A stretch of 227 nt of DNA from Escherichia coli (lineage in GTDB: Bacteria; Pseudomonadota; Gammaproteobacteria; Enterobacterales; Enterobacteriaceae). This document shows, piece by piece, positions 1-227 of this stretch. A program made the position numbers and the translations under genes. Where the stretch lies: the NCBI RefSeq assembly GCF_003334335.1, contig NZ_QOWQ01000234.1; one strand, given 5' to 3'. Positions within the stretch are counted from its first letter, which is position 1. The number at the start of each line of letters is the position of its first letter. Below the pieces are notes generated by a model. It was not told the DNA's origin. It did not search any database and worked only from the letters and a program-made list of their open reading frames with translations.

Positions 1-5
1 CAAAT

Positions 6-34
6 GCCTGATGCGCTACGCTTATCAGGCCTAC
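6..34 (+). repeat. REP / palindromic unit, Z2-like, copy 1
   Basis: gcctgatgcgctacgcttatcaggcctac. Imperfect palindrome with arms 6-16 and 20-30 (9 Watson-Crick pairs, one G-T, one mismatch) and a 3' CTAC tetranucleotide, matching the REP consensus pattern GCC(G/T)GATGCG...CTTATC(C/A)GGCCTAC. Confidence 0.85.
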
Positions 35-51
35 AGATTCTTGCGCCATTC

Positions 52-85
52 GTAGGCCGGATAAGGCGTTCACGCCGCATCCGGC
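52..85 (-). repeat. REP / palindromic unit, Y-like, copy 1, inverted relative to the Z2-like unit
   Basis: Reverse complement of 52-85 is gccggatgcggcgtgaacgccttatccggcctac, which matches the classic E. coli REP consensus as I recall it. Arms gccggatgcggcg and cgccttatccggc flank a tgaa loop; GTAG lies at 52-55 on the + strand. Confidence 0.88.
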
Positions 86-98
86 AATGGTGACAAAT

Positions 99-127
99 GC
101 CTGATGCGCTACGCTTATCAGGCCTAC
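99..127 (+). repeat. REP / palindromic unit, Z2-like, copy 2
   Basis: Identical to 6-34, offset by 93 bp. Confidence 0.85.
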
Positions 128-144
128 AGATTCTTGCGCCATTC

Positions 145-178
145 GTAGGCCGGATAAGGCGTTCACGCCGCATCCGGC
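145..178 (-). repeat. REP / palindromic unit, Y-like, copy 2
   Basis: Identical to 52-85, offset by 93 bp. Confidence 0.88.
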
Positions 179-191
179 AATGGTGACAAAT

Positions 192-220
192 GCCTGATGC
201 GCTACGCTTATCAGGCCTAC
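192..220 (+). repeat. REP / palindromic unit, Z2-like, copy 3 (unit truncated by the window end after 227)
   Basis: Identical to 6-34, offset by 186 bp; followed by the first 7 nt of the 17-bp linker. Confidence 0.85.
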
Positions 221-227
221 AGATTCT

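Follow-up and report, generated by a model that had tools for sequence, protein, structure and literature searches.

The window analyzed here, a 227-nt stretch of Escherichia coli DNA, was identical at 227/227 positions to a region of E. coli N921 located between yahG and yahI, with these genes on the minus strand of the window. The array in N921 comprises five units, of which the window is a fragment covering 2.44, and the three identical units of the window were found there. The same array is present in K-12 with four units, under b0322 (yahH), and has been named REP23 in the literature (PMC11551758, PMC4765031). The K-12 array shares its locus, unit types, linkers and orientation with the window, differing only by copy number and a few linker and loop substitutions. 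Judged by its sequence, the window is the interior of the REP23 array of E. coli K-12. The array lies inside the co-directional yahDEFG(H)IJ cluster, and the mRNA of the cluster corresponds to the minus strand of the window. The first-pass annotation of this DNA had noted that BIME-2 elements sit in intergenic regions, often at the 3´ ends of transcription units, and had called for the flanks to be mapped. The position between yahG and yahI agrees with an intergenic placement, but the array is not at the 3´ end of a transcription unit; its flanks are co-directional genes within the yah cluster.

A 93-bp tandem repeat fills positions 1-227 in 2.44 identical copies (TRF: 2.4 copies, 100% matches, score 454), and a repeat search likewise gave copies at 1-93 and 94-186 with 100% identity and a partial third copy at 187-227. 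With the limits of the palindromic units set at GCC...CTAC, each 93-bp unit contains one Y and one Z-type unit, alternating in opposite orientation, and the lengths of the segments add up to the period (34+17+29+13 = 93; Table 1). Both Y units read GCCGGATGCGGCGTGAACGCCTTATCCGGCCTAC (34 nt, minus strand), an exact fit to the Y consensus, which is printed in identical form in PMC12306157, while the Z-type units all read GCCTGATGCGCTACGCTTATCAGGCCTAC (29 nt, plus strand), an exact fit to the short-Z consensus. The 17-nt linker, AGATTCTTGCGCCATTC, runs from CTAC to GTAG, and the 13-nt linker is AATGGTGACAAAT. The unit limits and TRF thus reproduced the alternating Y/Z architecture, the 17- and 13-bp linkers and the 93-bp period that had been described before. 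The statement that the linkers carry no good match to the IHF site also held: no match to WATCAANNNNTTR with fewer than two mismatches was found in the window, and the three matches with two mismatches were at chance level (37 of 200 shuffles equalled them).

Table 1. Positions of palindromic units, linkers and overlapping annotations in the 227-nt window
Feature	Positions	Strand	Basis
13-nt head-to-head linker, 3´ part; window starts inside	1-5		periodicity with 86-98
Z1 unit no. 1, 29 nt, GCC...CTAC	6-34	+	short-Z consensus; z1 length in PMC8266576
17-nt tail-to-tail linker AGATTCTTGCGCCATTC	35-51		CTAC/GTAG limits
Y unit no. 1, 34 nt, GCCGGATGCGGCGTGAACGCCTTATCCGGCCTAC	52-85	-	Y consensus
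13-nt head-to-head linker AATGGTGACAAAT	86-98		unit limits
Z1 unit no. 2	99-127	+	unit limits
17-nt tail-to-tail linker, copy 2	128-144		unit limits
Y unit no. 2	145-178	-	unit limits
13-nt head-to-head linker, copy 2	179-191		unit limits
Z1 unit no. 3	192-220	+	unit limits
Next 17-nt linker, initial 7 nt; window stops inside	221-227		periodicity
Y-linker-Z dimers above the Rfam naRNA4 (RF02564) threshold	55-124, 148-217	+	78 bits vs gathering score 59.5
Part of ORF annotated yahH / hypothetical protein, repeat MAQESVGLISVAHQAFVTIAGCGVNALSGLR	1-227	-	RefSeq annotation

REP elements, or PUs, are defined by a GTAG tetranucleotide adjoining the foot of an imperfect palindrome of 30-40 nt (PMC3333891). 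For all five palindromic units, we detected GTAG/CTAC at the foot, and the AA/GC stem mismatch of REP elements was also present, with Y folding with a 2x2 internal loop and Z1 with an AA bulge. Folded as single units, the hairpins ranged from -11.5 to -21.3 kcal/mol (z -2.9 to -4.9), with the Y hairpin at -21.3 kcal/mol (z -4.9) on the mRNA-sense strand and the Z1 hairpin (copy at 99-127) at -13.2 kcal/mol on the plus strand and -11.5 kcal/mol on the minus strand. The minimum free energy of the entire window was -104.1 kcal/mol (z -5.9) for the mRNA-sense strand and -102.4 kcal/mol (z -6.2) for the other strand, and strong hairpin-forming potential is therefore shown on both strands. The whole-window RNA fold paired Y with a distant Z1 and contained no local hairpins; we took this pairing to be artefactual, arising when a repeated sequence is folded at equilibrium, and based the hairpin energies on single-unit folds instead. 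Matches were found in all of the complete E. coli genomes (5426/5426), at a median of at least 27 places per genome, as for a high-copy, dispersed element. These matches bear out the earlier assignment to the enterobacterial REP/BIME arrays, and the further remark that this is a known class of element was justified, the array being already known as REP23. Binding of DNA gyrase, binding of Pol I and stabilization of mRNA are properties described for REP/BIME elements generally.

The type of the Z unit determines how the array is to be classed. Published unit lengths are 35 nt for y, 29 nt for z1 and 37 nt for z2 (Corneloup 2021, PMC8266576). By its length, the 29-nt Z-type unit of the window is Z1, not Z2, and the earlier label "Z2-like" has to be given up; consistent with this, the Z hairpin of the window is 7 nt shorter at its tip than the Z2 hairpin of naRNA4 in the Rfam alignment. 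In addition, it is the short Z that accompanies the IHF linker in BIME-1 pairs genome-wide. We also considered the opposite assignment, with the short Z as Z2, and rejected it given these published lengths and the 36-37-nt Z units carried by REP325 and by the sequences flanking rayT, both of which are called Y+Z2, or BIME-2, in the literature. The labels Z1 and Z2 are absent from the text of Tobes & Pareja 2006.

BIME-2 elements are defined by the combination of Y and Z2, while elements that combine Y, Z1, Z2 and linkers in any other way, mostly as several copies, are referred to as atypical BIMEs (PMC3333891, PMC1187871). The window shares with BIME-2, as used by Bachellier and Gilson, the multiple tandem copies (2.44 units in the window, five in N921), the alternating orientation, the short linkers, judged on length, and the lack of an IHF site, but it is composed of Y and Z1 rather than Y and Z2. 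Its unit types are those of BIME-1 (also RIP or RIB); BIME-1, however, consists of a single Y-Z1 pair with a long (~33 nt) IHF-bearing L linker, whereas the copies here are in tandem with a 17-nt linker at the corresponding position and no IHF site. The L-type (IHF-linker) arrangement is present elsewhere in every genome. BIME-2 requires Y+Z2, and the Z unit here is Z1; with its tandem copies of Y+Z1 joined by short linkers, the array is therefore, on sequence grounds, an atypical BIME in the nomenclature of Bachellier, combining BIME-1 composition with a BIME-2-like tandem short-linker architecture; membership in this class is by exclusion. The first-pass annotation, which had called the array BIME-2-type, was right about the architecture but not about the class. 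To some extent the label depends on naming habits, because "BIME-2" is used loosely by some authors.

If the array were instead a canonical BIME-2 (Y and Z2 with S and s/l/r linkers), it would be expected to act as a strong, transcription-independent DNA gyrase site. Such a site would fit the tandem alternating units, the short linkers without an IHF site and the exact agreement of the Y units with the consensus, given that gyrase cuts mainly the Y unit (PMC6379681). The linkers also have the 17- and 13-nt lengths seen in REP325 and are ~65-69% identical to them by eye (11/17 positions for the 17-nt linker and 9/13 for the 13-nt "l" linker). We nonetheless regard this explanation as unlikely, since the definition demands Y+Z2 (PMC3333891, PMC1187871) and the Z unit here is a 29-nt Z1 rather than a 36-37-nt Z2; preferential cleavage by gyrase has been documented for Y+Z2 arrays. 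The portion of the Sutormin 2019 gyrase supplements that was covered makes no mention of yahG, yahH or yahI.

The units of the atypical BIME also resemble the REPtron substrates of the RayT transposase (TnpA-REP, yafM), each having GTAG beside the base of an imperfect hairpin whose stem carries the AA/GC mismatch. RayT requires GTAG together with the stem mismatch (PMC3333891), and the window units contain the cleavage motifs TGCC|TGAT and GGCC|TAC of RayT substrates (PMC3333891). With the GTAG-plus-bulged-hairpin signal on each unit, the array fits a predicted RayT substrate. In contrast to the Y+Z1 array of the window, rayT itself, at a different locus (247.6 kb in K-12), has Y+Z2 units on its flanks.

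We compared the locus among strains using a spread sample of 60 entries. The array varied from zero to five units, with sequence-confirmed spans of 433, 481/491, 585, 668, 760 and 853 bp, and by our count zero or one unit was present in 29 of the 57 entries spanning the array, or roughly half. Natural alleles within this range (zero, one, three and five units) are carried by 23CRST032, EM06-18-14, Nissle 1917 and O157:H7/N921. Changes in unit number, in 93-bp steps, might arise by slippage, unequal recombination or the action of RayT. Substitutions were unevenly distributed, with 8 of 63 columns variable in the palindromic units compared to 12 of 30 in the linkers (Fisher p = 0.006) and with the 17-nt tail-to-tail linker as the most variable segment. 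Among the eight variable palindrome columns, four form two compensatory pairs and two are in loops. Linker variants of 16 and 17 nt, which differ by 1-nt indels, shift the reading frame at different units. The constraint on the array is structural rather than coding.

This variation bears on yahH, for which a CDS ("protein YahH", b0322 in K-12) is annotated by RefSeq/PGAP across the array. Two of the three minus-strand frames are stop-free within the 93-nt unit, and because 93 nt equals 31 x 3 nt, the ORF stays open through the entire array on the transcribed strand. If yahH were a real gene, a protein with a 31-residue repeat would be translated within the yah operon, and the locus would be a DNA, RNA and protein element at once. 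Ribosome footprints have been reported for the ORF (X002/yahH) in EHEC (RPKM 56, coverage 0.61; Neuhaus 2016, PMC4765031), though no mass-spectrometry peptide was found for X002 (PMC4765031). Reads in that study were aligned at the default settings of Bowtie, which allowed multi-mapping (PMC4765031), so that reads from any of the many other identical Y or Z1 copies in the genome could, we infer, land on yahH. Of the substitutions in yahH, 5 were synonymous and 15 non-synonymous, which does not differ significantly from the synonymous share of 26.5% predicted for neutral change (p = 0.64), and by codon position the changes were distributed 6/8/6. There is thus no sign of purifying selection and no protein-level constraint on the ORF, with variation tracking the anatomy of the hairpins rather than the codons and 1-nt linker indels breaking the frame at different units.

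Neither the presence nor the length of yahH is conserved, as the ORF is missing or very short in strains with zero or one unit, and entries with zero or one unit in the spread sample had no yahH CDS, with the exception of H50. The annotated starts fall in a hairpin loop (in K-12, a GTG in the Y loop) or in a linker. YahH had no match above the cut-off in NCBIfam, where the score for SidA (34.8, cut-off 35) was driven by the repeat and limited to 13-residue stretches, and no significant match in Pfam. Given these observations, a translated yahH gene is very improbable, and we judge the ORF to be a by-product of a stop-free repeat with a period that is a multiple of 3 rather than a constrained gene. 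The earlier statement that the array is "not a gene" agrees with the lack of coding constraint, but has to be set against the annotated RefSeq CDS and the claimed footprints (PMC4765031). Translation of the yahH ORF would suppress Rho-dependent attenuation (Espeli 2001, as cited in PMC4765031). It is conceivable, if quite doubtful, that copy number (0-5) serves as a strain-variable dial of the yahDEFG:yahIJ ratio with the array translated into a YahH repeat protein of varying length; were this so, a protein would have been born from a REP array, its translation in turn suppressing Rho-dependent attenuation.

A small-RNA function is suggested by Rfam, in which two dimers of the window matched naRNA4 (RF02564) on the plus strand at 78 bits, above the gathering threshold of 59.5. 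The array would then encode several small RNAs of the naRNA4 type, which would bind HU and aid nucleoid condensation, in line with the report that naRNA4 binds HU and condenses DNA (PMC4550694). The strand that passes the threshold, however, is antisense to the yah genes, and the transcribed strand scored 53.9, below threshold. The plus strand passes only because the model describes a Y-linker-Z2 dimer, so that any such dimer scores; for comparison, the REP325 copies scored 95-111. With the flanking genes on the minus strand and no promoter-like site found on the plus strand in or beside the array, RNA from the matching strand is not expected. When the locus was scanned for promoters and terminators, neither a promoter nor an intrinsic terminator was found within the array; the sole promoter-like match fell in yahI and was no more than shuffles give. 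REP325 and the naRNAs were also reported to be without effect on nucleoid volume or REP-REP contacts (bioRxiv 10.64898/2026.03.23.713779). We therefore consider naRNA4-type genes at this locus to be exceedingly improbable.

S. Adhya is an author of both this 2026 preprint and the original naRNA4 paper. Further Rfam matches, to mir-456, mir-2007 and mir-962, had E-values of 0.17-7.5, far below thresholds, and were rejected as chance.

Overall, the window is very likely the interior of REP23, a Y+Z1 atypical BIME, which would act by a mechanism at the RNA and DNA level that we propose by analogy. The best experimental model for the function of the yahG-yahI array is REP325 (yjdM-yjdN; the source of naRNA1-6, RF02564), which likewise has tandem Y and inverted Z units with 13- and 17-nt linkers between co-directional genes. 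REP325 was shown by experiment to be an mRNA stabilizer and a partly Rho-dependent terminator (bioRxiv 10.64898/2026.03.23.713779). The same study reported upstream-biased expression for tandem gene pairs containing REP elements, with effects that depended on context and no general effect on half-life (bioRxiv 10.64898/2026.03.23.713779). REP325 differs from the window in its 36-nt Z2 and period of 100, compared to the 29-nt Z1 and period of 93 here, and its polarity relative to transcription is opposite. With the array inverted and Z1 in place of Z2, it is uncertain how far the REP325 results carry over quantitatively.

By this analogy, the most likely function of the array would be protection of the upstream mRNA from decay together with partial termination of transcription. 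In the yah transcript, the Y (-21 kcal/mol) and Z1 (-11.5 kcal/mol) hairpins would block 3´-to-5´ exonucleases, and the yahDEFG part of the message upstream would be stabilized as a result. The array may also cause partial, largely Rho-dependent termination, leading to lower expression of yahI-yahJ. In most of the strains examined, the first hairpin begins 13 nt past the yahG stop codon, although this distance is 23 nt in OV24 and MS1170. Stalling of terminating ribosomes by this hairpin is possible because the 13-nt distance is within the limit of 15 nt or less reported between stop codon and REP (Liang 2015, as cited in PMC12306157).

The literature already covers this element and its locus (REP23/yahH), as well as the polymorphism and the probable roles of the array, and the analysis carries little weight as a discovery; its practical value is in annotation. 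The labels Z1 and Z2 are easily swapped, and with a 29-nt unit that is Z1 by length, the array is best described as atypical. RefSeq keeps a variable-length yahH CDS over a repeat without coding constraint, and a match to the Rfam model of naRNA4 marks no more than a generic Y-Z dimer, in this case on the strand opposite to that of the flanking genes. For the biology of E. coli, the natural series of zero to five units at a single site within an operon constitutes an allelic series for the effects of REP dosage on termination and mRNA decay.

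TRF resolved the window into a single array (1-227, period 93, 2.4 copies, 100% matches, 0 indels), and the repeats are listed in the table. Together with mapping of the palindromic units (PUs), for which boundaries of GCC...CTAC were used, this showed units of opposite orientation alternating across linkers of 17 and 13 nt with a 93-bp period, exactly the anatomy that the first-pass annotation had described. The Y consensus is also printed in PMC12306157. The claim that no good IHF match is present held as well: nothing in the window came below two mismatches to WATCAANNNNTTR, and the three matches with two mismatches are at chance level (equalled in 37/200 shuffles). 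Two identical ATG ORFs antisense to the yah genes were also seen and are almost certainly spurious products of the repeat.

Repeat units, linkers and other features mapped in the window
Feature	Sequence	Window positions	Strand	Basis
93-nt copies, identical		1-93, 94-186		repeat search
Partial third copy		187-227		repeat search
29-nt Z-type unit	GCCTGATGCGCTACGCTTATCAGGCCTAC	6-34, 99-127, 192-220	+	PU mapping
34-nt Y unit	GCCGGATGCGGCGTGAACGCCTTATCCGGCCTAC	52-85, 145-178	-	PU mapping
17-nt linker, between CTAC and GTAG	AGATTCTTGCGCCATTC			PU mapping
13-nt linker, the other linker of the 93-nt unit	AATGGTGACAAAT			PU mapping
29-aa ATG ORFs	MPDALRLSGLQILAPFVGRIRRSRRIRQW	4-93, 97-186	+	
IS621 target	ATCAGGCCTAC	24-34, 117-127, 210-220	+	
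naRNA4 (RF02564) matches		55-124, 148-217	+	Rfam

By megablast, all 5426 complete E. coli genomes matched the window (5426/5426; median of at least 27 places per genome), which confirms its membership of the REP/BIME elements. The only 227/227 match was in strain N921 (NZ_CP176484.1, 3665951-3666177), where the window sits between yahG and yahI and makes up the yahG-proximal 2.44 units, reached first by transcription, of an array with five Y-Z units in full. The neighbours fdrA/yahF, yahG, yahI, yahJ and yahK are all on the window's - strand. The array thus lies between co-directional genes of a putative operon, an intra-operon position that the first-pass interpretation had not included; its neighbours are not convergent and it does not close a transcription unit. 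In K-12 MG1655 this array consists of four units, overlapped by CDS b0322 (yahH). The element has been named REP23, with yahH 'filled with REP23 sites' (PMC11551758), and yahH has been described as a BIME (PMC4765031); it is already known as REP23/yahH, and the first-pass judgement of a known class of low novelty stands.

The subtype required revision. The Z unit, previously called Z2-like, is Z1: it is 29 nt long, vs 37 nt for z2 in MG1655, for which lengths of 'y (35nts), z1 (29nts) and z2 (37nts)' are reported (Corneloup et al. 2021, PMC8266576), and in the Rfam alignment to the naRNA4 model, which represents a Y-linker-Z2 dimer of the yjdM-yjdN array REP325, the second hairpin of the window is 7 nt short at its tip. 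A long Z, GCCTGATGCGACGCTGGCGCGTCTTATCA[G/T]GCCTAC, was found at the rayT/yafM flanks and in REP325, loci designated Y+Z2 in the literature ('Y and Z2 ... BIME-2 on both sides', PMC2817692; 'y REP and z2 iREP', PMC3333891; REP325 explicitly, PMC4550694). The label of Z2 for the short Z was dropped on account of these lengths and of the long Z at both loci. A BIME-1-type query (Y, 33-nt linker and short Z, with an IHF site), approximating the RIP/BIME-1 consensus, found places at ≥80% length coverage in 5426/5426 genomes, the best match having 99% identity across the full 98 nt, which identifies the short Z as the unit that accompanies Y in BIME-1-type pairs. BIME-1 is defined as a single Y+Z1 pair with a long L linker bearing an IHF site, BIME-2 as Y+Z2 in tandem copies with short linkers, and atypical BIMEs as the remaining combinations in multiple copies (PMC3333891, PMC1187871). 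By these definitions, which come from secondary sources, the present array, with Y+Z1 in tandem and short linkers, is an atypical BIME of BIME-2-like architecture; the earlier BIME-2 label was right as to the element class but not as to the subtype. The linkers of REP325 are equal in length to those of the window array and ~65-69% identical in sequence by eye, and the array looks like a BIME-2 scaffold with a short-tipped Z hairpin. Each Z1 unit carries, without mismatch, the 11-nt sequence that the IS621 bridge-RNA recombinase naturally targets, found at 74.5% of insertion sites (PMC11208160), so that the array offers three tandem IS621 landing sites (five in N921).

The naRNA4 family (Rfam RF02564) scored 78 bits on the + strand, vs a threshold of 59.5, and 53.9 on the transcribed - strand, under the threshold; REP325 copies score 95-111. 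A small-RNA gene reading of this match was rejected, as shared Y-linker-Z anatomy explains it. The nucleoid-condensing role of naRNA4 is disputed (10.64898/2026.03.23.713779). Outside REP325 (L005, the REP325 region, 2806-3382), the model passes its gathering score at K-12 REP23 (L004, the K-12 yah region, 5812-6067) and at a further Y-Z dimer adjoining phnD (L005 250-330). Automatic 'naRNA4' labels will therefore mark generic BIME dimers, falling on whichever strand of the dimer scores higher.

The first-pass statement that the window is not a gene had overlooked the annotated yahH. RefSeq carries a - strand CDS over the array (390 nt in N921, 321 nt in K-12, 297 nt in many other strains), with the product given as 'protein YahH' or 'hypothetical protein' and starting at a GTG in the Y loop in K-12 and elsewhere at an ATG in a linker. 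The unit length is a multiple of three (93 = 31 x 3 nt), and stop codons are absent from two of the three - frames; a frame therefore stays open at any unit number, and the annotation of a CDS follows mechanically. Ribosome footprints (RPKM 56, coverage 0.61) were reported for the EHEC ORF X002, which is the yahH ORF, without a mass-spectrometry peptide, and a 'triple function' was proposed (Neuhaus et al. 2016, PMC4765031). Since those reads were mapped by Bowtie defaults (PMC4765031), we infer that footprints from the many other identical genomic Y or Z1 copies could be placed at yahH. In a comparison of 29 units taken from nine strains, linkers had a higher share of variable columns (12/30) than PUs (8/63; Fisher p = 0.006). 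Two of the eight PU columns are in loops, and four belong to the first Y of Nissle 1917 (L012), where two compensatory changes from G-C to A-T (upper stem GACA...TGTC vs the usual GGCG...CGCC) preserve the hairpin. The two Z1 units beside this Y have an A-to-T change in the lower stem that is not compensated. The 20 variable columns, read in the YahH frame, are spread 6/8/6 over codon positions 1/2/3, and 15 non-synonymous and 5 synonymous changes fit the neutral expectation (26.5% synonymous, p = 0.64). In the last unit of K-12 and N921, and in the fourth of five in O157:H7, the 17-nt linker is replaced by a 16-nt variant, which shifts the frame. YahH gave no NCBIfam model above cut-off and no Pfam family. 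The yahH ORF is most plausibly a by-product of the repeat; its non-coding nature is supported on evolutionary grounds, and occasional translation is possible. Read by eye, the yahG frame past its TGA stop passes into the second of the array's stop-free - frames (...HHCRMRRERLIRPTNGARICRPDKRSASGIC...; L004 5741-5760), the annotated YahH frame being offset by +1, so stop-codon readthrough would extend YahG through the whole array.

Using a flank-only query (200 nt from the yahI side and 200 nt from the yahG side), the locus was detected in 5049 genomes, and 60 rows spread over the ranking gave a ladder of spans of 853, 760, 668, 585, 481/491 and 433 bp. By sequence, there are five units in O157:H7 1130 and N921, four in K-12, EC-107 and 2013C-4991, three in Nissle 1917, two in MS1170, one in EM06-18-14 and OV24, and none in 23CRST032. 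The 'empty' allele of 23CRST032 (L010), a 94-nt yahG-yahI spacer without Y or Z1 and with an unrelated small palindrome, CCCTTCTCCCTTCTGGGGAGAGGGG, at the site, is either the ancestral state or a replacement. Length polymorphism is known for tandem BIMEs (PMC1187871; PMC3333891), and the ladder is a case of it. Each unit has GTAG plus the mismatched-stem signal, which the RayT transposase requires, and C|T cleavage motifs (PMC3333891). The unit number may plausibly change by slippage, by unequal recombination or through RayT. The documented preference of gyrase is for Y+Z2 arrays, chiefly the Y unit (PMC6379681). The first 150 nt of the flank query, the 5´ part of yahI, also matched large E. 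coli plasmids at 97-98% identity (NZ_CP098193.1, NZ_CP095821.1; H89-H90 of the flank search; 120 plasmid places in all; annotated 'carbamate kinase family protein'), with no match to the yahG side on those plasmids.

Y-Z1 units are present at the orthologous locus in E. albertii, E. whittamii and Escherichia sp. E1V33, and the short-linker Z1-Y junction in Escherichia, Citrobacter, Pseudocitrobacter and Kosakonia genomes. In E. albertii NBRC 107761 (L014 3885-4126), two Z1-Y units have between them a 52-nt copy of the yahG-side flank (3982-4033, 92% identity), which suggests that the duplication took in unique flanking DNA. The yahG and yahI flanks of L019, a MAG contig labelled 'uncultured Pseudocitrobacter sp.', are 96.5-97% identical to E. 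coli, closer than those of E. albertii, and the contig may thus be mis-binned Escherichia DNA.

The window is predicted to be strongly structured relative to shuffled controls on both the mRNA-sense - strand (MFE -104.1 kcal/mol, z -5.9) and the + strand (-102.4 kcal/mol, z -6.2), with single-unit hairpins of -21.3 (Y) and -11.5 (Z1) kcal/mol on the mRNA-sense strand. A promoter/terminator scan of the array found no promoter and, with no T run, no intrinsic terminator. The closest experimental model is REP325, likewise an array of tandem Y-Z units flanked by co-directional genes, which stabilises the upstream yjdM mRNA and causes partial, partly Rho-dependent termination before yjdN; tandem gene pairs with a REP show a genome-wide bias to upstream expression (preprint 10.64898/2026.03.23.713779). 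The first Y begins 13 nt past the yahG stop in K-12, N921, O157:H7, Nissle and EM06-18-14, and 23 nt past it in OV24 and MS1170; as REPs no more than 15 nt from a stop reportedly stall ribosomes (Liang 2015, as cited in PMC12306157), such stalling at the end of yahG may add to a REP325-like effect. REP325 differs, however, in its reversed polarity with respect to transcription and in having Z2 rather than Z1, and REP effects are context-dependent (10.64898/2026.03.23.713779). By analogy with REP325, the most likely function is a dual one, in which the array would protect the yahDEFG portion of the mRNA and attenuate yahIJ, with a strength that may scale with unit number.
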